A stretch of 42,963 nt of DNA from the IMG/VR virus record IMGVR_UViG_3300045988_024953. The stretch is one strand, 5' to 3'. The position numbers were made by a program, and so were the translations under genes. Each line of letters starts with the position of its first letter. The first letter of the stretch is position 1. The notes under the pieces are model-generated. The model saw only the letters and a program-made list of their open reading frames with translations. It was not told the DNA's origin and ran no database searches. Below, piece after piece: positions 3,055 through 42,963 of this stretch. The stretch comes from a virus.

Positions 3055-3345
3055 ATGTTAGGATCAGGAAACGGCGAGCCACAAACGTGCGCCGAAAATT
3101 TATTAAAAACGCCACGCTTCTCTGTACCGTATGAGCGGATCAAAGGCATCGACGGCAGCTTGATCGACTCCCCTGCTGCCACAGCTGGCGATGATATGAT
3201 CGCCGATGCTGAGTGGCTCCTGGAAACATACGAGCCGCGGGTGCAGGTAAACAGCATTGAAGCCAACGAAACCGATGGAGTCGGTGACTTCGGCATTGTG
3301 GCGGATCTATCCATCAATATATTAGACGAGGAGGAAGATGCATGA
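3055..3345 (+). CDS. Baseplate wedge protein, gpW/gp25-like
   Basis: 96 aa with an IADAEWLLETYEPRVQV motif (GPW_gp25-like). It lies immediately upstream of baseplate J. Confidence 0.6.
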   Translation: MLGSGNGEPQTCAENLLKTPRFSVPYERIKGIDGSLIDSPAATAGDDMIADAEWLLETYEPRVQVNSIEANETDGVGDFGIVADLSINILDEEEDA

Positions 3346-4466
3346 GTGACTTAAATTTTATCACGATTGACTCCTCGGAGATTTACGACACCATAATCAC
3401 CGCACTGGAAAACGGCTGCAGCGACGAGCTATATCCTGGAGACGAACGCCGCATATTCGGCGAGGCTCTTGTGGCTGTCATTGTGGCCACATTCAACTCA
3501 GTGAATGATGCTTGCCGCCAGAGACTACTGCGCTACGCCAGAGGCGAAGTCCTGGACGCACTCGGAGAGTCAAGAGGAGTCTTGAGAGAGACACCGGTGT
3601 GCAGCACCGCAACGGAGCGCTTCTCGGTGTCAACAGCAATCGGTGACAATATAGTCATACCAAAGGGCACGCGAGTGACTTGCGACTACTCTCATTACTT
3701 CACTACCGACAAAACGGTCGTACTTCCAGCTGGTTCTTTGTATGTCGATGTCGGTATCACGGCAACAGTCGGCGGTGAGGAATACAACAAGATCCTTCCG
3801 GGATCAATCAATGTCATGGTGGACCAGATCCCATACATTGATAAAGTTGAAAACCTTGCCAAGACATCCGGCGGAGCTGACAAAGAGACGGACGATGTGT
3901 ATCGCGAAAGAATACGAACCAGCAGCGCAAAGGTGTCAGTTGCCGGACCAGCTATCGCCTACAAATACTGGGCCATGGCAGCAGATCCGACGATTGCAGA
4001 CGCGGTTGTTGAGTCTCCGAGCCCTGGTGTTGTTATGATCACGCCGATCGGATATGGTGGGCAGGTGCCAGACGAGTCGCTTCTGGCCAAGGTGCTGGCG
4101 TCCTGCTCTGCCGATGACGTTCGACCACTGACCGACCAGGTAAAGGTGCAAGCTCCGACTGTTGAGGAGTACGACATCGAATTGACCTATTACACATCAG
4201 CGGCAAACGAGTCGAAGTGTGTCAGTACAATCGAAGGAAGCGGCGGAGCTATTGACCAGTACAACTACTGGCAAGGCTCGGCACTAAGCCGAGACATCAA
4301 CCCGGACTATCTTCGCAAGCTAATTCTTGCACCGAGCTGGGGGGATGATCTTGTCGGCGCCGACCGCGTTGATATAGTGAGCCCGGTATATACCGATCTC
4401 AGCAAAACAACCGTCGCAAAATTCTCCGGGACAATCAAAGTATCACATGTCGTAGAGGAGGGATAG
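3342..4466 (+). CDS. Baseplate J-like protein (XkdT/gpJ)
   Basis: 374 aa. Size, position and N-terminal pattern (ELYPGDERRIFGEAL...) are typical of the Baseplate_J family. Confidence 0.8.
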   Translation: MSDLNFITIDSSEIYDTIITALENGCSDELYPGDERRIFGEALVAVIVATFNSVNDACRQRLLRYARGEVLDALGESRGVLRETPVCSTATERFSVSTAIGDNIVIPKGTRVTCDYSHYFTTDKTVVLPAGSLYVDVGITATVGGEEYNKILPGSINVMVDQIPYIDKVENLAKTSGGADKETDDVYRERIRTSSAKVSVAGPAIAYKYWAMAADPTIADAVVESPSPGVVMITPIGYGGQVPDESLLAKVLASCSADDVRPLTDQVKVQAPTVEEYDIELTYYTSAANESKCVSTIEGSGGAIDQYNYWQGSALSRDINPDYLRKLILAPSWGDDLVGADRVDIVSPVYTDLSKTTVAKFSGTIKVSHVVEEG

Positions 4467-4467
4467 C

Positions 4468-5592
4468 ATGAGCATGAAACTTGAAAATGTCGAAATTGTG
4501 AAGCTGCTCCCTCCCTGGATGCGACAAGACGAAGCAAACGCAGCACTCAGCAGATCCGCGAGCTCTCTTTTTCAGGAACCAGCCAAGAGGATCAAACAAC
4601 TCCGGATCTGGGACAAAATTGACGAGCTGGACGATGATATGCTGGACGAGCTGGCCTGGGAGCTGAACATCGACTGGTACAGCTCAGCCATGGAGATCTC
4701 CAAAAAAAGAGCAACCATCAAAGTGGCGCACTTGATCATGGAAAAGCGTGGCACAAAATGGGCTGTCGAACAGCTTATATCCGCGTACTTCGGCACCGGA
4801 TATGTCAAAGAATGGTTTGAGTACGGTGGCGATCCGTATATGTTCCGCGTTTTGACCACCAACCCCGACATCGGGGACGATGGCATGGCTGGCTTTTTCA
4901 AGCAGGTAGACGTTGCCAAAAGTGTCCGATCACACATGGAAGGCGTCTACTTTTACGAGGAACTTGAGCCGGTGATCCTGGTCTCTCCCACTTCTACTGC
5001 TCATGTATTTGAGTATGTAAAATGCGGGACCAGACCAAGATCTGCAAACATCGGCAGGATCAAGACGACCACTATCGAGGCGAGCCCTCAGGCATCGAGC
5101 CATGGTTTTGAATATACACACGCCGGAGACGGTACCAAGGCTGGCACCTACCCACGCCAGGCAAACGTGGCCAAGATAAAAAACGGAGAGGTTGATGCCC
5201 TTCCGCAGTCAAGACATCACCCTTTTGAATATGCCACACACGCCGGGGATGGCACCAAAGCCGGTACCTACCCGAACCGGATGGCTCTGGGTGAAATAAC
5301 AAAAGCAACAGTTGAAGCCGATGGATCCGCCGAAATCATCGGCTTTATGTATGCCAGAACGACCGGCACCTATCCGAGAGCTGCTAACAATGCTGAGATT
5401 ACAACGGCAGCAGTTGAAACAGACGGATCTCTCGATCCGCATCAATTTGAGTATATCAGGAAAGCGGGAACGAGCCCAAGGCACGCCACTCTCGCTGAGA
5501 CAGCTCAAGGAAACATGGAGGCAGCAGGCGCCACCTCGGTGCACTGTTTCACATACACAAAATGCGGCACTAAGAAGTGCGGGCAAAAGTAG
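4468..5592 (+). CDS. Tail protein gpI/XkdU-like with C-terminal tandem repeats
   Basis: N-terminal LPPWMR...LDELAWELNIDWY...KRGTKWAVEQL matches the P2 gpI-type family. The C-terminal half carries six FEY...GT.PR.AN repeats. Confidence 0.65.
   Translation: MSMKLENVEIVKLLPPWMRQDEANAALSRSASSLFQEPAKRIKQLRIWDKIDELDDDMLDELAWELNIDWYSSAMEISKKRATIKVAHLIMEKRGTKWAVEQLISAYFGTGYVKEWFEYGGDPYMFRVLTTNPDIGDDGMAGFFKQVDVAKSVRSHMEGVYFYEELEPVILVSPTSTAHVFEYVKCGTRPRSANIGRIKTTTIEASPQASSHGFEYTHAGDGTKAGTYPRQANVAKIKNGEVDALPQSRHHPFEYATHAGDGTKAGTYPNRMALGEITKATVEADGSAEIIGFMYARTTGTYPRAANNAEITTAAVETDGSLDPHQFEYIRKAGTSPRHATLAETAQGNMEAAGATSVHCFTYTKCGTKKCGQK
5002..5592 (+). repeat. Six degenerate ~33-40-aa coding repeats in the gpI-like protein
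   Basis: The units begin HVFEYVKCGTRPRSAN, HGFEYTHAGDGTKAGTYPRQAN, HPFEYATHAGDGTKAGTYPNRMA, IGFMYARTTGTYPRAAN, HQFEYIRKAGTSPRHAT and HCFTYTKCGTKKCG. Confidence 0.75.
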
Positions 5593-6760: not shown

Positions 6761-7831
6761 ATGAGTAAACCTAATTTTGATTTATCAAATCTGGCGCTCC
6801 AGATGGTGCTGCCAAACAATGAGCTTATTTATGACGACAAGGGGATGCCTTCCGTCATGGTCAAGATCCCAAAATTTAAGATCAGTGACGTGATCACCGG
6901 CGGATCAAGCAACACACACCCTGCCTTTATTGTAAACGGCAAAGAAATCGACGCGATCTACATCAGCAAGTACCTCAATGTTGTTGATGATGGCAGAGCC
7001 TACTCTCTCCCAGGCCAGGATCCGGCGAACACACTCAACTTTGACCAGGCAGTGCAGTATTGCACAGCAAAAGGAGAGGGCTGGCATCTTATGACCAACG
7101 CAGAATGGGCTGCCGTTGAGCTCTGGTGCTTAAAGAATGGCTTCATCCCTAAGGGTAACAACAATTACGGAAAAGACGGATCCGAGAGCAACCGCAAGGC
7201 TATTCCGTCCAACATGGATGGCTCGAACGTCGGAAGAACCGCAACCGGAACCGGTCCTCTTTCCTGGTATCACGACGGAACCGTTTGCGGCATTGCGGAT
7301 CTCAAGGGTGATGTCTGGGAATGGTCTGGCGGCCTCCGTTTTGTATTCGGAGAGGTGCAGGTGCTCGCAGATAACAGCGCCGCGGATCTCGACAACCCTC
7401 AGAACGCATCCAGCGCAATGTGGAAAGCCATTGACGCAACAAGTGGCAGCTTAATCGATCCTAAGGGAGACGGACGCACCGCGAACTCTGTCAAGGTCGA
7501 CATTGTTTCCGGAAAGATGCAGTACACCACCACCATCGCCAACGCTACCGGCAATGTAAACTGCAAATTTGCAGAAATCACTTGCGCGGCGTCAATCGGC
7601 GCAGCAGCGAAGGCAGTCCTCCAGGCGCTCGGTCTGCTCTGCACCGACACCTCTGCAGACTACGCAACAAGCCAGTGCTACCTCAACAATGCAGAGGCAG
7701 AGCGTCTGGTGTCTCGCGGGGGCCGCTGGTACCACTCTGCGTCTGGACTCTTTTCGTTCTACGGCAACATTCCGCGCTCGTCTGTGTACTGGAGCATCGG
7801 TTTCCGCTCCGCTTATTACAAGAAGATCTGA
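6761..7831 (+). CDS. DGR target protein: FGE-sulfatase/C-type-lectin-fold putative receptor-binding tail protein
   Basis: 356 aa. The motifs GWHLMTNAEWAAVELW, GDVWEWSGG and C-terminal WSIGFRSA are typical of the FGE-sulfatase/CLec fold. VR occupies the last ~40 codons. Confidence 0.9.
   Translation: MSKPNFDLSNLALQMVLPNNELIYDDKGMPSVMVKIPKFKISDVITGGSSNTHPAFIVNGKEIDAIYISKYLNVVDDGRAYSLPGQDPANTLNFDQAVQYCTAKGEGWHLMTNAEWAAVELWCLKNGFIPKGNNNYGKDGSESNRKAIPSNMDGSNVGRTATGTGPLSWYHDGTVCGIADLKGDVWEWSGGLRFVFGEVQVLADNSAADLDNPQNASSAMWKAIDATSGSLIDPKGDGRTANSVKVDIVSGKMQYTTTIANATGNVNCKFAEITCAASIGAAAKAVLQALGLLCTDTSADYATSQCYLNNAEAERLVSRGGRWYHSASGLFSFYGNIPRSSVYWSIGFRSAYYKKI
7702..7813 (+). repeat. DGR variable region (VR)
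   Basis: Aligns without gaps to 8280-8391. There are 13 mismatches, all opposite TR adenines. Confidence 0.93.
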
Positions 7832-7857
7832 CAATCTGATAATCTGAGGATCTGATC
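7826..7857 (+). repeat. 8-bp tandem array: ATCTGA x4 with 2-nt spacers
   Basis: The sequence is atctgaca atctgata atctgagg atctgatc. The TGAs at 7829, 7837, 7845 and 7853 cover all three frames, and the first is the target gene's stop codon. Confidence 0.85.
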
Positions 7858-7882
7858 AGGGGCGCCCGCCAAAGCGCCCCTG
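7857..7882 (+). promoter_or_regulatory. GC-rich stem-loop downstream of VR (candidate DGR target-recognition hairpin and/or terminator)
   Basis: caggggcgc (7857-7865) pairs with gcgcccctg (7874-7882) around an 8-nt loop ccgccaaa, followed by gttattta. Confidence 0.6.
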
Positions 7883-7905
7883 GTTATTTATGAGAAAGGA
7901 AGCAC

Positions 7906-8247
7906 ATGGCAGATTTAAAACTACAACAAAAGATTGAGAGGATGATCTCAAAGTCATCCATCTGGATCAACAATATGCCAAAGCCCGACAAATTCGTGCT
8001 CGGCGAAGAAATAAGAAGATCAGAGTGGATGATGCTCCGGTGGAGTATTCTGGGAAATGCTACACATAAAAGCAAACGACCATATCAGGAAAAGATTGAC
8101 GACGAGCTCAAGGTGCTCAAAGGCTTCATTGATCTGGCCGTGCAGCCAGAAAATAAGCTGATCAGTCCAGGAGCTCACGGAGAATGGACTGCGATGCTGA
8201 CAGAAATCGGCTGCATCCTCGGTGGATGGATAAACCGCACAACATGA
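7906..8247 (+). CDS. avd: DGR accessory variability determinant (Avd)
   Basis: 113 aa, basic and helical. The C-terminal TEIGCILGGWINR resembles the EVGRILGSWIARVN of Bordetella phage Avd. It lies between the target gene and TR. Confidence 0.85.
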   Translation: MADLKLQQKIERMISKSSIWINNMPKPDKFVLGEEIRRSEWMMLRWSILGNATHKSKRPYQEKIDDELKVLKGFIDLAVQPENKLISPGAHGEWTAMLTEIGCILGGWINRTT

Positions 8248-8279
8248 TCGCACCGTGGGGGATGTGCCGGGAAATCGTG

Positions 8280-8391
8280 GCGTCTGGTGTATCGCGGGGG
8301 CAACTGGAACAACTCTGCGAATGGACTCTTTTCGTTCAACGGCAACAATCCACGCTCGAATGTGAACTGGAGCATCGGTTTCCGCTCCGCT
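8280..8391 (+). repeat. DGR template region (TR)
   Basis: This is the invariant copy of VR, with 23 adenines. In the VR frame it has 9 AAY codons plus one TAT. It is non-coding and sits between avd and the RT gene. Confidence 0.93.
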
Positions 8392-8582
8392 CTGGTCTAT
8401 TTTGTTGAGGATCCACGGCACTCATGGGTGCCTGGCAACGGTCCAGATCAAAGGGGCACGTCTCCCGGTATAGAAATCTATACCAAAGACAGATCCGCCT
8501 GACAATGGGCGGTGTTTACTGCGTAGGCTGGCCGGATCATCGGATTGTCACGCGCAGCTATTAAAGAACAAAGGAGGCAACA
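8392..8582 (+). ncRNA. TR-RT spacer, probably part of the DGR template RNA
   Basis: Non-coding. Three stem-loops: ggcac/gtgcc (8417-8432), ggtataga/tctatacc (8467-8484) and ccgcc/ggcgg (8495-8512). Confidence 0.5.
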
Positions 8583-9692
8583 ATGGAACAATGTAAAAAC
8601 ATGTTCGAGAAAATCTACGCATGGGAGAACCTTCTGGACGCATATCACCATGCAGCCAGTGAGAAATGGTTCCGCGACGACGTGGCGGCCTTCTCTGCTC
8701 ATCTGGGTGAAAACCTAACAGACATTCAAAACTCGCTTATCTGGAAAACATACACGGTTGGAAGGTATCGCGAGTTTTATGTTTATGAGCCAAAAAAGCG
8801 CCTTGTCATGGCTCTGAATTTTCGTGACAGAGTTGTGCAGTGGGCGATATATTTGCAGCTCAATCCTCTGCTCGACAATCAATTTATTTACCACAGCTAC
8901 GGCTGCCGGGTAGGCAAAGGAACAACCAGAGCTGCCGATCAACTTCAATACTGGATGCGCATGGCAGACAGAAAACCAATTCCCTGGTACTATTTGAAGC
9001 TCGATATATCAAAGTATTTTTACCGAGTGGACCATAATGTCCTGCTCGGGATCCTCAGGAGAAAATTCAAGGGAGAGGATGACCTGCTCTGGTTGATGGA
9101 TAAGATCATCAACTGCGACCACACTCCCTTCGGATTGCCTCCTGGGCTTAATGTTGACGACATACCGCCAAGTGAGCGACTTTTTGAAGTCGGGATGCCG
9201 ATCGGCAACTTGACGAGCCAACTGCTTGCAAATGTGTGTCTTAATGAGCTGGATCAGTACATCAAGCACGAGCTCCGCGTCCATTGTTATGTCAGATATA
9301 TGGACGACATGGTGCTACTGCATCCGGACAAGACTTTCCTCAACAAGTGCAAGGATCTGATTGAGGAATATCTCAACGATATACTTCACCTGGAGCTCAA
9401 CAGCAAGACAACCATCGGCAAAGTCTCCTGCGGGATCACTTTTGTCGGGTATGTAATCCGGCCAACATACCGGAAACTAAAACGCAAGTCGCTCCGCAAA
9501 ATGAAGGCACGCATCCGTTACATCCAAAAGGAGTACGAAAGCGGCCTCATTGATTTTGAGGACGTCAACAACACGATGCAGAGCTACTTCGGACAGATGT
9601 CAAACTTTGACAGCTATGGACTCAGGAAGTGGATCACTGAAAACATCGCCTTCCAGCGCGGAGAGACACGCGGGAAAGGAGGTATCACATGA
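8583..9692 (+). CDS. DGR reverse transcriptase
   Basis: 369 aa. YMDD at 9297-9308 and the DGR-hallmark IGNLTSQ at 9201-9221. AGGAGG RBS upstream. Confidence 0.95.
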   Translation: MEQCKNMFEKIYAWENLLDAYHHAASEKWFRDDVAAFSAHLGENLTDIQNSLIWKTYTVGRYREFYVYEPKKRLVMALNFRDRVVQWAIYLQLNPLLDNQFIYHSYGCRVGKGTTRAADQLQYWMRMADRKPIPWYYLKLDISKYFYRVDHNVLLGILRRKFKGEDDLLWLMDKIINCDHTPFGLPPGLNVDDIPPSERLFEVGMPIGNLTSQLLANVCLNELDQYIKHELRVHCYVRYMDDMVLLHPDKTFLNKCKDLIEEYLNDILHLELNSKTTIGKVSCGITFVGYVIRPTYRKLKRKSLRKMKARIRYIQKEYESGLIDFEDVNNTMQSYFGQMSNFDSYGLRKWITENIAFQRGETRGKGGIT

Positions 9693-11830: not shown

Positions 11831-11863
11831 CCCAGCAGGACCATCACCTGCTGGGTGTTTTTT
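11831..11863. terminator. Bidirectional rho-independent terminator between convergent lysis and integrase genes (also a candidate attP)
   Basis: cccagcagg (11831-11839) pairs with cctgctggg (11847-11855). It is flanked by an A-run upstream and a T-run downstream. Confidence 0.7.
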
Positions 11864-13487
11864 AGTGCTCGGCGAACACTTTCCAGTTAAAGACAAAACT
11901 CACAACACCGCGGAAATAAAGGATCCGCGTGGTGTTCGCCTCAGACTCATTTAGTGGAGCAGACGAGTCCAAAGGCGAACCCTCTGCACCATCCATGTCA
12001 ACAAGTTCCTGCTCGATCTGCCTGAGCGTCAGCTGGTTGTTTTCGCCGGTATAATTGTAATTGATCACGATCCGGCCATCGTCCCAGAGATAAACAGACG
12101 AGACAAACGCCTCCACCAGCTTCGTGCGATAATCAGGATCGTCAAGACTGCCCTCTTTGAACTTCTCCAGAAAATACACAATCTGGTCACGCTCGATGTC
12201 TGGCGTTGCTATCTTCTCCCTTGCTATCGCGGCACTGATCTGATCCCGCTGCTCCTCAAGCTCCATGAGCCTCTGCTTCGTGCTTTTCGTGATGATGCCC
12301 TGCTCAATCGCCTGCATCATGTTCCTGATCGAACTCTCCACATTCTTGAGACTTGCCTCCAGAGCATCGAGCTCTCCGTTGCTTTTCTTTTCTCTCTCCA
12401 GAAAGTCCATCACTCCGTCAGCAATCTGCTCGATCATATCCTCAGCAAGCACGACCTCTTTCGTATATTTTACAACAATATCCTCAATCCATTCCTTTTT
12501 CACCGGCTTTTTATCACAACCGTGCCGCCTGGTTCGGTTTACGCAGGCATAATAGTCGTATTTCTTACCAGACTTGCCGGTGCCAGCTCTGCCGACCATC
12601 AGCTCACCGCAGTGGCCACAGAACAGCTTCGAGGTGAGGATGTAGTCCGCAACCTTCCATTTATGCGCCGGAGCTCTGGATCCTCGGTCGAGCTTGCGCT
12701 GCACACTGTCAAACAATGGCAGCGGGACGATCTGCGGCATACCGCCCGGAACAGTAACATCGCCCCAGGAATACTCGCCGATATACTTCCGGTTCCTCAG
12801 GATCCTGGTCACACTGTTTTTGTTAAAGGCAAAGCCTCGCGTTGTCCGGAAGCCTCTGGCGTTTAGGTCGTCGATGATCTCTTTCTGCGGAACGCCTGCA
12901 TCATACTTCTGGAATATACTCAGCACAACGCTGGCATAATCTGGATCAATCTCATAACAACCATCTTCTCCGGTGTAATACCCAAGCACCTGGACGCCGT
13001 TGGTCTTGCATTTCATGGCATTGCCTTCCAAACCTCTGAGGATGTTCTGGGAAAGCGCCGCGCTGTAATACTCGGCATATCCCTCGAGAACTGACTCCAG
13101 GATGATGCCCTCAGGTCCGTCCGGTATCGTCTCTTTTGCGTACAGAACGCGGACGCCGTTCTTTCTGAGCTTCGCCTTATATATGGCGCTGTCATATCTG
13201 TCGCGGGCGAAACGATCCACCTTGTAAGTGACAACGACCCGGAACTTGCCACGAGCTGAGTCCCTGATCATTTTCTGGAAGTCCGGACGGCTGTCTGTTC
13301 TTCCGGTGAGAGCTGAGTCTGTATATTCTGCAATGATCTTTATGTTGTTACGAGCAGCGAACTCGTGACACTCACGCAGCTGATCCTCGATTGACTCCTC
13401 TCTCTGGGAGTGGCTTGAGTACCTGGCATAAATGACGCCGATCATTCCATCACAATCCGACGCTGCCGCTGGTATCCTTTTTGCCAT
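11862..13487 (-). CDS. Large serine recombinase (integrase)
   Basis: Resolvase catalytic N-terminus (VIYARYSSHSQ...DRFARD), a recombinase domain and a Cys-rich zinc ribbon (CGHCG...YYACV). The ORF is open to 13496. I prefer the ATG at 13487, which has a GAGGTG RBS. Confidence 0.9.
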   Translation of the reverse strand: MAKRIPAAASDCDGMIGVIYARYSSHSQREESIEDQLRECHEFAARNNIKIIAEYTDSALTGRTDSRPDFQKMIRDSARGKFRVVVTYKVDRFARDRYDSAIYKAKLRKNGVRVLYAKETIPDGPEGIILESVLEGYAEYYSAALSQNILRGLEGNAMKCKTNGVQVLGYYTGEDGCYEIDPDYASVVLSIFQKYDAGVPQKEIIDDLNARGFRTTRGFAFNKNSVTRILRNRKYIGEYSWGDVTVPGGMPQIVPLPLFDSVQRKLDRGSRAPAHKWKVADYILTSKLFCGHCGELMVGRAGTGKSGKKYDYYACVNRTRRHGCDKKPVKKEWIEDIVVKYTKEVVLAEDMIEQIADGVMDFLEREKKSNGELDALEASLKNVESSIRNMMQAIEQGIITKSTKQRLMELEEQRDQISAAIAREKIATPDIERDQIVYFLEKFKEGSLDDPDYRTKLVEAFVSSVYLWDDGRIVINYNYTGENNQLTLRQIEQELVDMDGAEGSPLDSSAPLNESEANTTRILYFRGVVSFVFNWKVFAEH

Positions 13488-13492
13488 CCGGA

Positions 13493-13957
13493 TCACCTCG
13501 TTTCTGGCAAACCGATGATGGCGCCGCTCTTGTCTGCGAACTTATTGCAGCAGAGCATCACAATGTCGACGATCCAGCCGATCCCGAAACATCCAAGAGT
13601 CAACAACCAAAGGATGCCGGTGCCTATCTTTCCAACATAAAAGCGGTGGATCCCCATATACCCAAGCAGCACACAAAGAACCAGTGCGACGCCCTTGCTT
13701 TTCTGAGAGCGAACCGGCACAGCTACCTCTGGCACGATCGGATCAGCTGACGCGGCAGCAGTCGGAGCTCCCATCTTTTTACTTGTGGAATATGACAACC
13801 CAGTGCCGGGGATCCCGACCGTGGTCGTTGTCCTTCCTCTTGTGCTGAATGTTTTCTTGAACCCCTTCGGGCCGATGGATATGCTTGCGCTTTTTGCGTT
13901 CAAATTTACTCGCACGCCTGGCGCGATCTTCTTACTCTTTCTAAATCTCATTCCCAT
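13493..13957 (-). CDS. DUF4236-like N-terminus plus TM2-domain membrane protein
   Basis: 154 aa. N-terminal RFRKSKKIAPGVRVNL..., C-terminal GIHRFYVGKIGTGILWLLT...GIGWIVD TM2 motif. Its stop lies 3 nt before the integrase ATG. Confidence 0.65.
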   Translation of the reverse strand: MGMRFRKSKKIAPGVRVNLNAKSASISIGPKGFKKTFSTRGRTTTTVGIPGTGLSYSTSKKMGAPTAAASADPIVPEVAVPVRSQKSKGVALVLCVLLGYMGIHRFYVGKIGTGILWLLTLGCFGIGWIVDIVMLCCNKFADKSGAIIGLPETR

Positions 13958-20958: not shown

Positions 20959-22359
20959 ATGACAGAAACAACCAGAACAACCAAAGACACCGCGATAATG
21001 ATCAAGGTGTCGAACCTCTACCCTCACCCAGACAACCCGCGCAAGGATCTCGGAGACCTCACGGAGCTGGTTGAGAGTATCAAGAAAAACGGCATCATGC
21101 AGAACCTAACAGTCATCCCGATCGGCAACGAAAGAGATCCAGAGGAGCAGGCGGACGCCGGAAACATTGCACTATACAGTGACTTCCGTGTTTTGATCGG
21201 ACACAGACGACTGGCAGCAGCCAAAAAGGCAGGGCTTGAGAGTGTTCCGTGCCGCATCGTCAGTAACATCAGCCGAAGCGACCAGATCGGCATCATGCTC
21301 GAGGAAAACATGCAGCGCAATGACCTGAGTATATATGAGCAGGCTCAGAGCTTCCAGATGATGCTCGACCTCGGAGAGACCGAGGAGACAATCTCACAAA
21401 AGACCGGCTTCGGGCGCACTACGATCCGCCACCGTCTGAACATTGCCAAGCTCGACAAGCGCGTCATGCAGAGGATCGACAAGGACGAGAGTTTCCAGCT
21501 CTCATTTAAGGATCTGTACGAACTGGAGAAAATCAAAGACATCAAGAAGCGCAACGAAGTCCTTCGAGACTCAAGAGACTCCAGAGATCTGGCGAGCAGA
21601 GCCATCCAGGCAGCCAAGCAGGAGGCAATGGACGCCGTTGCAAAGAAAGTCATAGAACTGGCAGAAAAGCGAGGCATTAAACTGGCCAGCGACTACGCAA
21701 ACCACCGCTGGGACAATACATACACAACGGTCAAAGACATATCACTCGAAGAAAAAGCTCCGGAACGTCTCAGGATCGGCGATGATGGTGAGCTTTTCTA
21801 CTGCCGTGAATTTAGAACCATAAAGATCCTCAAAAAAACACCCAAAAAGGCAAAAACACCAAGCAAGGCCGAGCTGGAGCAAAAAGATCGTGAGAAAAAG
21901 ATCAAAGAAATCAAAAGGTCAACCAAGGAGATCGTCAGCAAGGTCACAGATTTTGTCAACAATCTGCTCTCTGGAAAAATTGAGCCGCTCAAGGAAACAG
22001 ACGAGCTCCTCCGGACAATCTGGGAGGCGATGCTGGCAACCGGCACATATATCTCAGAGAGTGCCCTCGTCTCTTTTATATCCGGCAAGGAAAAGTACCA
22101 GGTAAGCAAAGAGGAACGAGAGGCAACCATGCAGATTATGAAAAACACGCAGATCAGCCTGCAGATGCTCGCACTTCTGCCCGACTCTCTCAAGGGTATC
22201 GATCTTGTCGACTGGCAAGGTTACTACAACCAGGAAAAAGCCGGAACATTCAAGATGGTGATCCGCGCACTGGTGCCGTATGGCTTCTCTATCACCGAGG
22301 AGGACGAAAAGCAGATACTTGACGGAACCCACGAGCTCTACGCCGTAAAAGAAAAATAA
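20959..22359 (+). CDS. ParB-like nuclease-domain / DNA-binding protein
   Basis: ParB N-terminal motifs: YPHPDNPRK, IGHRRLAAAKKAGLESVPCRIV, and the HTH segment ISQKTGFGRTTIRHRLNIAKL. Confidence 0.8.
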   Translation: MTETTRTTKDTAIMIKVSNLYPHPDNPRKDLGDLTELVESIKKNGIMQNLTVIPIGNERDPEEQADAGNIALYSDFRVLIGHRRLAAAKKAGLESVPCRIVSNISRSDQIGIMLEENMQRNDLSIYEQAQSFQMMLDLGETEETISQKTGFGRTTIRHRLNIAKLDKRVMQRIDKDESFQLSFKDLYELEKIKDIKKRNEVLRDSRDSRDLASRAIQAAKQEAMDAVAKKVIELAEKRGIKLASDYANHRWDNTYTTVKDISLEEKAPERLRIGDDGELFYCREFRTIKILKKTPKKAKTPSKAELEQKDREKKIKEIKRSTKEIVSKVTDFVNNLLSGKIEPLKETDELLRTIWEAMLATGTYISESALVSFISGKEKYQVSKEEREATMQIMKNTQISLQMLALLPDSLKGIDLVDWQGYYNQEKAGTFKMVIRALVPYGFSITEEDEKQILDGTHELYAVKEK

Positions 22360-41634: not shown

Positions 41635-42963
41635 GTGGCGAAATCAAAAACTCTCCAGGCGGTTGTTGAAATCGCCGGAACGCTGAGCCCCACACTCGCA
41701 TCATCAATCGGAGAAGTCACCGACAAACTCGGTGGCATCAATGTCAAAGCTCTGGCCGTCGGTGCAGCAGTCGGCGGCATTGCAGTGGCTACAACCAAGG
41801 CGGTGTTTGAAGCAGGAAAGGCACTCGTAGACCTGGGTGGAGAATTTGACAGCGCATACGACAACATTCGTATCGGTACCGGTGCAACTGGTGACGCTTT
41901 GCAGGATCTCCAGGACGACTTCAAGGAAGTGTATAAAAGTGTGCCGACAACAATGGAGGACGCCGGACAAGCTATTGCGGACTACAACACACGTCTGGGA
42001 CTAACTGGACCGCAACTGCAGGAAATATCCAAGCAAGCAATCCAAGTCTCTGACATGCTGGGCGACGATCTCGGCAGCGTTATCGAGGAGTCGAGCCAAG
42101 CCTTCCAGCAATGGAACATCGACGCGGATGACATGAGCGGCGCGATGGACTATGTGTTCAAAGCATCGCAGTCGACCGGTATGGGTTTTACTGACTTATT
42201 GAGTACAGTGCAACAGTTTGGACCTCAGCTGCAAGAGATGGGGTACTCCTTCGAGGAGTCCACCGCCCTGATCGGACAGCTTGATAAAGCCGGAGTAAAC
42301 ACTGGCGAAGTTCTGGGAGCGATGAAAAAATCAGTTAGCGCTCTGGCCAAAGAAGGCATAAGTGCAAGCGACGGACTGGCTCAATATTCCGAAAAGATCA
42401 AGGGCGCCAAAGATATGACGGAAGCAACAACAATAGCGTCCGAAATTTTTGGAACAAAGGCAGCCTCAACAATGGCGAAAGCAATCAGAGATGGCACACT
42501 TTCGGTGGACGACTTAACAAAGTCTCTCGAAGATAGCCAGGAGACAATCGCCGGGGCAGCTGGCGACACCTACGACTTTGCCGAACGCCTGCAACTTTTT
42601 AAGCAACAAGCTCAGGTTGCACTGGAGCCTCTCGCGAGCACGCTTTTTGACTCTCTCAATGACTTAATGCCTATTGTCGGCGAAGCAATGGAAGGAATTA
42701 TTCCAGTAATTGAGCAAATGAGTGAAGCAATAATCCCAATCGTTAAGGATTTACTGCCAAAGATCGGCCCGATGCTCACACAGCTCGTTCCTCCACTTGT
42801 AAGCATGGCGGGCACAATAGGCTCGCAGCTTATTCCTCCGATCGTTGAAATGGTGACAAGCCTCATCCCGGTAGCGATCCAGCTGGCTCAGGCACTCATG
42901 CCGGTGATCCAGACATTGATCCAGAACATCCTGCCGGTCGTTGTGAGCCTGCTGTCCCAGATC
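41635..42963 (+). CDS. Tail tape measure protein, N-terminal part (TP901-family core; continues at window position 2)
   Basis: GTG start after AGGAGGAGG. My own translation: VAKSKTLQAVVEIAGTLSPTLASSIGE...DYVFKASQSTGMGFTDLL.... No stop before the window end. Confidence 0.85.
   Translation, partial: MAKSKTLQAVVEIAGTLSPTLASSIGEVTDKLGGINVKALAVGAAVGGIAVATTKAVFEAGKALVDLGGEFDSAYDNIRIGTGATGDALQDLQDDFKEVYKSVPTTMEDAGQAIADYNTRLGLTGPQLQEISKQAIQVSDMLGDDLGSVIEESSQAFQQWNIDADDMSGAMDYVFKASQSTGMGFTDLLSTVQQFGPQLQEMGYSFEESTALIGQLDKAGVNTGEVLGAMKKSVSALAKEGISASDGLAQYSEKIKGAKDMTEATTIASEIFGTKAASTMAKAIRDGTLSVDDLTKSLEDSQETIAGAAGDTYDFAERLQLFKQQAQVALEPLASTLFDSLNDLMPIVGEAMEGIIPVIEQMSEAIIPIVKDLLPKIGPMLTQLVPPLVSMAGTIGSQLIPPIVEMVTSLIPVAIQLAQALMPVIQTLIQNILPVVVSLLSQI
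42664..42963 (+). repeat. 33-bp (11-codon) tandem periodicity inside the tape measure gene, upstream half
   Basis: Units LMPIVGEAMEG, IIPVIEQMSEA, IIPIVKDLLPK, IGPMLTQLVPP, LVSMAGTIGSQ, LIPPIVEMVTS, LIPVAIQLAQA, LMPVIQTLIQN. Confidence 0.8.
42909..42963. repeat. Terminal overlap, copy 2 (identical to 1-55)
   Basis: Exact 55-nt identity with the window start. Confidence 0.9.

Follow-up and report, generated by a model that had tools for sequence, protein, structure and literature searches.

The 42,963-nt viral record IMGVR_UViG_3300045988_024953 from IMG/VR (hereafter the window, meaning the whole stretch of DNA that was analysed) carries at positions 6761-9692 a diversity-generating retroelement (DGR), a system in which a reverse transcriptase (RT) and a template repeat (TR) serve to rewrite a variable repeat (VR) at the end of a target gene. 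The whole cassette lies on the + strand in the order target, avd, TR, RT, and its parts are as follows.

6761-7831, + strand: target (variable protein) gene, 356 aa, C-type-lectin/FGE-sulfatase fold (Pfam, TaqVP match, PHROG 2889)
7702-7813, + strand: VR, 112 nt, encoding target residues about 315-351
7906-8247, + strand: avd, accessory variability determinant, 113 aa, pI 9.1 (Pfam bAvd, PHROG 3206)
8280-8391, + strand: TR, non-coding, 112 nt with 23 adenines, in the avd-RT intergenic region
8583-9692, + strand: DGR reverse transcriptase, 369 aa (RVT_1, PHROG 1423, motifs IGNLTSQ and YMDD)

A first-pass annotation, made from the letters and their open reading frames (ORFs) alone, had named these four co-oriented components in this canonical order. 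All were recovered at the same positions, with the target gene ending in the VR, the small basic Avd-like gene, the RT motifs, the VR coordinates and the count of 23 TR adenines reproduced exactly. Its description of the TR as non-coding also stands, as the repeat sits in the 335-nt gap between avd and the RT gene, and the 71-aa ORF running across it (8287-8502) is merely an in-frame echo of the VR coding sequence. The VR covers 37 full codons near the C terminus of the target and ends 18 nt before the stop codon. TR and VR are 88% identical; they differ at 13 positions, and at all 13 of these the TR has an adenine (P = 3.4e-11, hypergeometric, for 13/13 mismatches falling on 23 adenines in 112 nt). 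When the TR adenines were masked, the resulting pattern matched the VR and TR sites alone in the 43-kb window and nothing in shuffled sequence, and low-stringency blastn with the TR and tblastn with the target revealed no second VR or target paralogue in the window. Twelve codons are able to vary, namely nine AAY codons plus TAT, AGC and ATC, with two adenines at silent third positions; the VR could so encode 15^9 x 4^3 = 2.5e12 peptides, none of them interrupted by a stop codon.

The RT carries IGNLTSQ at residue 207 and YMDD at residue 239, that is, the [LIV]GxxxSQ motif replacing QGxxxSP, plus YxDD, by which DGR RTs were recognized here. Its best solved-structure match is bRT, the enzyme of Bordetella phage BPP-1 (8ub7, E=1.3e-41), far ahead of group II intron RTs (2.9e-16) and retron-type RTs (1.5e-15) in the same search, and pairwise the RT and bRT are 32% identical over 350 aa (E=7e-50). 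A scan of species-representative genomes returned 570 relatives of the RT, and 28 loci with 50-74% RT identity were examined, drawn from Lachnospiraceae, Oscillospiraceae, Paenibacillus, Tepidibacillus, phage Lagaffe and others. An adenine-specific TR/VR pair of 109-120 nt, in the same arrangement and with the repeats about 560-600 nt apart, is present at 27 of the 28; the last one (L013) also has a repeat pair, in which the mismatches are not adenine-specific. Judged from the structure match and from the TR/VR pairs of its relatives, the RT belongs to a populated DGR clade.

The other two proteins agree with this assignment. The Avd ORF scores 51.7 bits on Pfam bAvd (cut-off 40) and matches PHROG 3206, 'Avd protein of DGR', with E=2.5e-24. 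The target matches Pfam FGE-sulfatase, of the C-type lectin superfamily, with 32.6 bits (cut-off 23.3), and its residues 22-352 of 356, the C-terminal variable segment included, align with the DGR variable protein TaqVP (PDB 5VF4, E=2.9e-57). It also has a weak PHROG tail-protein match and lies after the baseplate module and before the lysis genes, in the same position as BPP-1 mtd and Lagaffe gp26. This position and the weak tail match make a receptor-binding role the best guess and, together with the fold, make it probable that the target is a receptor-binding protein attached to the baseplate or a fibre.

The record of natural variation speaks most directly for activity. Fifteen close relatives of the window were collected, five through the adenine-masked TR pattern (two IMG/VR contigs and three metagenome contigs) and ten further ones through an exact look-up of the RT protein, drawn from the 1,147 blocks of a public assembly collection in which the identical 369-aa sequence is listed; many of the look-up relatives are prophages, on contigs of up to 698 kb. 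All but one of the fifteen match the window at 99.0-99.7% identity over 2.9-6.4 kb, the remaining one (L003) at 95.8%. The TR is unchanged in 16/16 genomes (the window and its 15 relatives), and the same 16 genomes hold 15 distinct VRs. Each VR differs from that of the window by 11-17 changes per 112 nt, compared with 0-8 differences outside the VR in eleven contigs, 20-48 in three and 125 in L003, over flanks of about 2.8-6.3 kb per relative. Among the first six VRs alone, 22 of the 23 adenine positions are substituted. An invariant TR beside VRs that change at adenines indicates repeated, one-way, adenine-specific rewriting, and the 11-17 VR changes against 0-8 in the flanks of eleven relatives indicate that diversification runs much faster than background divergence. 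Near-identical copies assembled from different samples show that the element has been active in nature, and the hypervariation of the target proposed at first pass is borne out. Two departures from the common pattern were noted among these copies. The VRs of L089 and L093 have in-frame 3-nt deletions in the AAC-AAT run, each removing one variable-loop codon; DGR surveys have recorded such indels (PMC5758913). The IMG/VR relative L001 has a 1-nt deletion at window-equivalent position 8645, 62 nt inside the RT gene; this is a frameshift unless the assembly is in error at that point.

At and downstream of the 3' end of the VR lie three elements that may serve as the target site, the first of them being the end of the VR itself and comparable to part of the initiation of mutagenic homing (IMH) sequence of BPP-1.

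7797-7813, + strand: adenine-free, GC-rich VR 3' end, the GC-rich part of an IMH-like region, identical to TR 8375-8391
7826-7855, + strand: four tandem ATCTG copies with 8-nt spacing, on the VR side only, candidate IMH-like recognition element (Tandem Repeats Finder, period 8, 3.8 copies)
7857-7882, + strand: GC-rich inverted repeat with a 9-bp stem and an 8-nt loop, between target and avd, hairpin/cruciform analogue (folding)

VR and TR end in the same 17 nt, which are adenine-free and GC-rich. The last mutable adenine lies at 7796 (8374 in the TR) and the TR/VR homology ends at 7813 (8391), and within 7797-7813 the T>G change at 7803 in L004 and L005 is the only non-adenine VR/TR mismatch found. 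Fourteen of the 15 relatives share the following segment (7814-7885) unchanged, and L003 keeps four ATCTG copies and the stem. The pattern of the ATCTG array, whose first copy contains the TGA stop codon of the target, occurs nowhere else in the window and in no shuffle. The VRs of nearly all clade members are followed by three to five (A/C)TCTG copies, spaced about 8 nt apart, which never follow the TRs: across 24 distinct clade sequences, the mean self-match of the 45 nt after the VR is 0.49 at shift 8 and 0.44 at shift 16, against 0.27 and 0.25 after the TR. Other DGR clades in the sample give a weak signal only, with a small peak at shift 7, so that the periodic array is firmly claimed for the clade of the window alone. 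Lagaffe has five copies, without the hairpin, after its second VR, which lies 10 kb away inside the gp40 coding sequence (array at NC_047911 32707-32760); an array following this intragenic repeat favours a role in DGR targeting and not in local gene regulation. An explanation of the repeats as stop codons in all frames fails across relatives and at this internal VR2.

A comparison with BPP-1 is instructive in this respect. The VR-specific part of its IMH reads cTGTGAccacCTGAttcTTGAg (L099 3438-3470, minus strand) and contains three TGA triplets, 8 and 7 nt apart, each of which is lost in the IMH* of the TR; five of the seven IMH/IMH* differences fall within these triplets. A literature search on periodic or tandem repeats in the IMH found nothing relevant. 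It is only tentatively suggested that the ATCTG array is a 'VR, not TR' signal, equivalent to the VR-specific half of the BPP-1 IMH, and that periodic arrays of short motifs may occur at DGR target sites in general, a feature so far undescribed. The array offers a concrete, testable candidate for how DGR homing recognizes its target, a step that is poorly understood. As for the hairpin, which is followed by the ribosome-binding site of avd, a GC-rich stem of differing sequence occupies the same place at about 25 related loci, and deeper-branching members have canonical 4-nt GRNA loops. Phage DGR hairpins have been reported with a 4-nt GRNA loop at a distance of 4-34 bp, and a hairpin/cruciform is needed for BPP-1 homing (PMC3240598). 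A role as intrinsic terminator was considered and rejected, as the structure lacks a T tract and a terminator scan did not score it.

The RNA around the TR was studied in alignments of 21-27 related elements, running from upstream of the TR to the start of the RT gene. In BPP-1, cryo-EM of the RT-Avd-RNA complex has revealed a TR:spacer template:primer duplex that ends at the priming adenosine, followed two nt further on by an avd:spacer duplex termed 'cPRT Stop' and then by a short stem-loop and adenosines; Stop-like duplexes were also described in 207 other DGRs, Bacillota included (Handa et al., bioRxiv 10.1101/2023.10.23.563531). The corresponding features of the window are these.

8257-8268, + strand: upstream strand of the Stop-type duplex, GGGGGAUGUGCC, in the avd-TR gap, analogue of the BPP-1 'cPRT Stop'
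8392-8582, + strand: spacer RNA, 191 nt (alignments, pair counts; fold z=-2.7)
8394-8399 : 8444-8449, + strand: primer-type duplex GGUCUA : CAGAUC, with GGUCUA directly 3' of the TR, template:primer analogue
8412-8436, + strand: inner hairpin of the spacer (alignments)
8450-8452, + strand: invariant AAA with the candidate priming adenosine (alignments)
8455-8466, + strand: spacer strand of the Stop-type duplex, GGCACGUCUCCC, pairing with GGGGGAUGUGCC at 8257-8268
8467-8484, + strand: stem-loop, then AAAGA (spacer alignments)
8519-8524/8552-8557, + strand: stem around the invariant GGAUUGUCAC (8542-8551), with modest covariation

The spacer of the relatives consists of invariant blocks with variable hairpins inserted between them, the order being the primer-type strand, the invariant AAA and GG, the Stop-type strand, the stem-loop at 8467-8484 and AAAGA. 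In the 12-bp Stop-type duplex 98.7% of the alignment cells are paired, with both-side changes at 8/12 pairs among 26 distinct sequences, and the 6-bp primer-type duplex has compensatory changes at 6/6 pairs, so that the two long-range helices together show both-side changes at 14/18 pairs. For the whole tested structure 92% of cells pair, compared with 30-55% when the partners are slid by 1-3 columns, and 0/500 shuffles reached the observed pairing values. Natural variants among the close relatives likewise preserve the Stop-type helix, through two C>U changes to G-U pairs in L093 and a U>C change from G-U to G-C in L003. Both BPP-1-type long-range duplexes are thus supported by covariation, as far as comparative sequence evidence goes, which extends the BPP-1 RNA architecture of primer and Stop duplex to a Bacillota phage clade and supplies testable coordinates for priming and termination. 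Three other pairings were set aside. RNAalifold pairs TR GGUUUCC (8377-8383) with spacer GGAUUGUC (8542-8549) in 96% of cells; both strands are nearly invariant, so covariation says nothing about this pairing, and the covarying duplex that adjoins the Stop strand was preferred as the primer duplex. The CAC of GGAUUGUCAC is invariant in 21 relatives, and this element may be a protein-binding site or part of an alternative RNA conformation. A local GGGG...CCCC hairpin at 8453-8466 was dropped since the 12-bp long-range duplex covaries, and pairing of the spacer CAGAUC with the ATCTG repeats holds in the window and is not conserved in relatives.

A working cycle can be proposed from these coordinates. 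It takes as its basis the intact parts, the adenine-only VR/TR differences, the fixed TR with changing VRs and the covarying duplexes. By analogy with BPP-1, a transcript of about 8257-8560 would assemble with the RT and a pentameric Avd, and the duplex 8394-8398:8445-8449 would position an adenosine of the AAA at 8450-8452 for priming of the cDNA in cis through its 2'-OH. The cDNA would start at or just past the 3' end of the TR, the first templated base lying at about 8392-8393; the RT would then copy the TR, misincorporating opposite the 23 adenines, and synthesis would end at the 8257-8268:8455-8466 duplex, near 8269-8279. The predicted start and end of the cDNA bracket the TR/VR homology at 8280-8391. 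The cDNA would finally replace the VR, guided by the shared GC-rich end (7797-7813) and by guides found on the VR side only, namely the ATCTG repeats (7826-7855) and the GC hairpin (7857-7882), with an outcome of about 2.5e12 possible variants of the C-terminal lectin-fold surface.

The clade of the RT, the Avd, the lectin-fold target, the adenine-only differences, the invariant TR with hypervariable VRs, and the BPP-1-like RNA and candidate target-site elements together make us confident that the locus is a complete, recently active DGR of the BPP-1/Lagaffe type, situated in the late (tail-to-lysis) region of a temperate, contractile-tailed gut Clostridia phage. The DGR interpretation of the first-pass annotation is upheld by all of these lines of evidence, and so is its comparison with BPP-1, given the same order of parts, placement, RT motifs and adenine-only TR/VR differences. 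Several observations nevertheless weigh against this reading. The Avd misses the NCBIfam DivGenRetAVD equivalog cut-off (75.4 vs 80) and gives a short match only in a pairwise comparison with bAvd, and pairwise comparison of the target with Mtd shows no significant similarity, so that 'Mtd-like', as judged from sequence comparison, is valid for its fold and role and not for its sequence. The hairpin has a loop of 8 nt instead of GRNA and lies 43 nt from the VR, and so departs from the reported phage DGR hairpins in both respects. The expectation that VR polymorphism would be confined to the 23 adenine-equivalent sites, checked on cross-sample assemblies, holds for nearly all changes but has four non-adenine exceptions: T>G at 7803 (L004/L005), G>T at 7729 (L096) and the two 3-nt deletions. 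The priming site, the cDNA ends and the homing step are inferred by analogy, and the record of activity is one of past rewriting, read from assemblies of different samples.

Were the RT that of a retron, a group II intron or an Abi/DRT defence system, the repeat pair would be an incidental duplication. Generic RT profiles of the retron, group II and Abi-DRT families do match, at low scores; all curated NCBIfam models of non-DGR RTs (group II maturase, retron, Drt2-5, AbiA), however, stay far below their cut-offs, with 117/300 for group II, 51/235 for retron, 51/200 for Drt3a and 22/250 for AbiA. Among solved structures, as noted, the RT is closest to bRT. Rfam gave no match either, in a permissive search of 7600-8700 or at the gathering threshold over the whole window, where neither a group II intron nor a retron msr RNA was found, meaning that no curated RNA family covers the DGR RNA. 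As mismatches confined to adenines (P=3e-11) recur in the pattern of 27/28 relatives, an RT of one of these other kinds is hardly credible. It is somewhat easier, yet still improbable, to imagine that the DGR of the window genome is silent or decaying and that the VR differences reflect past activity in ancestors. No variation was seen at the level of reads for Lagaffe_CP and two further Faecalibacterium phage DGRs in culture, though the VRs of related genomes differ (PMC11792537), and the early 1-nt deletion in the RT gene of L001 would fit decay. But in the window no ORF or catalytic motif is disrupted, over a thousand assembly blocks list the very same RT protein, eleven relatives combine 11-17 VR changes with 0-8 flank differences over about 2.8-6.3 kb, and the cis elements at 7814-7885 are identical in 14/15 relatives.

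The nature of the diversified protein is the less secure part of the account. The DGR may be real and yet act on a protein that binds no host receptor, be it one with another ligand (mucus or capsule glycans, or another surface) or a non-virion protein; we consider this unlikely, while giving it appreciably more weight than the two explanations above. The lack of significant sequence similarity to Mtd speaks for it, as do the closest solved relative, TaqVP, which has no known ligand, and the three upstream genes of unknown function between the target and the baseplate genes. Hoc-like decoration proteins are targeted by other Faecalibacterium phage DGRs (PMC5883640), and the early/replication region of Lagaffe encodes another target of this family. 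Against it stand the place of the gene after baseplate J and P2-I and before lysis, exactly as for mtd in BPP-1, the weak PHROG tail-protein match, and the location of the VR on the C-terminal lectin-fold surface, as in Mtd. A receptor-binding protein altered by the DGR therefore appears the better account of the target.

Of the elements described so far, the DGR of Faecalibacterium phage FP_Lagaffe comes closest to that of the window; its activity and second VR are already published (NC_047911; Cornuault et al. 2018, PMC5883640; PMC11792537). The two share the gene order baseplate J, P2-I-like baseplate, three small genes, lectin-fold target, avd, TR, RT and lysis, an RT that is 74% identical, cassette DNA that is about 70% identical, and the RNA motifs, ATCTG repeats and post-VR GC hairpin. 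Lagaffe differs in its second, remote VR in gp40, whereas the window has one VR and no target paralogue; in a spacer of about 318 nt with two extra hairpins, as opposed to 191 nt; and in an IS30-type integrase in place of the serine recombinase of the window phage. The rest of the window genome is unrelated to it at the DNA level. With the prototype, BPP-1, the window element has in common the order mtd-avd-TR-brt between tail-fibre and lysis genes (brt being followed there by two small genes and an endolysin), an RT that is 32% identical with IGxLTSQ and YMDD motifs, adenine-specific TR-to-VR differences, a GC hairpin after the VR, and a primer-type duplex beside an upstream:spacer 'Stop' duplex with a stem-loop and adenosines following. 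Unlike that of BPP-1, the target of the window is TaqVP-like and not Mtd-like in sequence, and the upstream Stop strand lies in a 32-nt avd-TR spacer instead of inside avd codons. The shared VR/TR end is identical in the window, so that discrimination between VR and TR must lie further downstream, where a regular 8-nt ATCTG array takes the place of three TGA triplets at 8-/7-nt spacing and the hairpin has its larger loop of 8 nt, 43 nt from the VR. TaqVP, from a Thermus aquaticus DGR, shares the C-type lectin fold of DGR variable proteins, aligned through the variable segment; it is chromosomal and not part of a phage tail module. DGRs of similar type are well described in gut Clostridia phages (PMC5883640, PMC11792537), which are known to be rich in them, and the window DGR adds nothing categorically new. 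Its prevalence and its clean adenine-only record over a fixed template make it, in our opinion, a natural system well suited to the question of what gut-phage DGRs select for.

The remainder of the genome accords with a temperate phage. Positions 1-55 of the window are an exact copy of 42909-42963, a terminal self-match indicating a complete genome of ~42.9 kb in circular assembly; the 55-nt overlap is probably an assembler k-mer artefact rather than a true terminal repeat. Features around the cassette include the following.

3342-4466, + strand: P2-type baseplate J gene, upstream of the cassette
4468-5592, + strand: P2-I-like baseplate gene, upstream of the cassette
11862-13496, - strand: serine recombinase ORF, the integrase of the window phage

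The first-pass placement of the cassette between the fibre/tail module and the lysis cassette is accurate: on its 5' side are the P2-type baseplate genes and three small conserved genes (PHROGs 7177, 9010 and 8734) that separate them from the target, and 3' of the RT the lysis cassette follows, with an XhlA-like gene, a holin-like gene and a CHAP endolysin. The RT gene and the XhlA-like coiled-coil gene share the letters ATGA (9689-9692), the stop codon of the one overlapping the start codon of the other, which suggests that the RT is translated within the late operon. The head genes resemble those of lambda (GpA terminase, lambda-family portal, ClpP, capsid E), as had also been proposed. The tail is of the contractile kind and has P2/Mu-type baseplate parts; its first-pass label of PBSX type is tentative. 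Megablast of 24 kb of the remaining phage genome against GenBank phages gave no match, nor did the exact adenine-masked TR pattern against species-representative genomes; RT relatives of up to 73% identity sit in metagenome-assembled genomes and isolates of Clostridia/Eubacteriales. Samples with the element include ERZ27956077, ERZ27260749 and ERZ1311369. Contigs carrying the exact RT range from under 2 kb up to 0.2-1 Mb, and its listing in 1,147 assembly blocks implies that the phage or prophage is very widespread in sequenced samples. It exists in two forms, a free circular genome and a prophage.

A few further observations concern genes outside the cassette. The P2-I-like baseplate protein (4468-5592) has a C-terminal extension of about six imperfect ~35-aa repeats (FEY...AGDGTKAGTYP...), by which it exceeds its Lagaffe counterpart by ~70 aa; this extension is possibly a fibre-like or attachment part. 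In ten prophage copies (L088-L097), similarity to the window stops at 11958-11965, within the 3' end of the recombinase ORF, so that the attP crossover seems to lie within the last ~33 codons of the integrase gene; the bacterial flanks of these copies vary, being smpB, a DUF6512 gene, or unnamed genes of 105 or 125 aa. Finally, a ParB-like protein with ParB N-terminal and HTH domains is encoded at 20959-22359, in the early/replication region.

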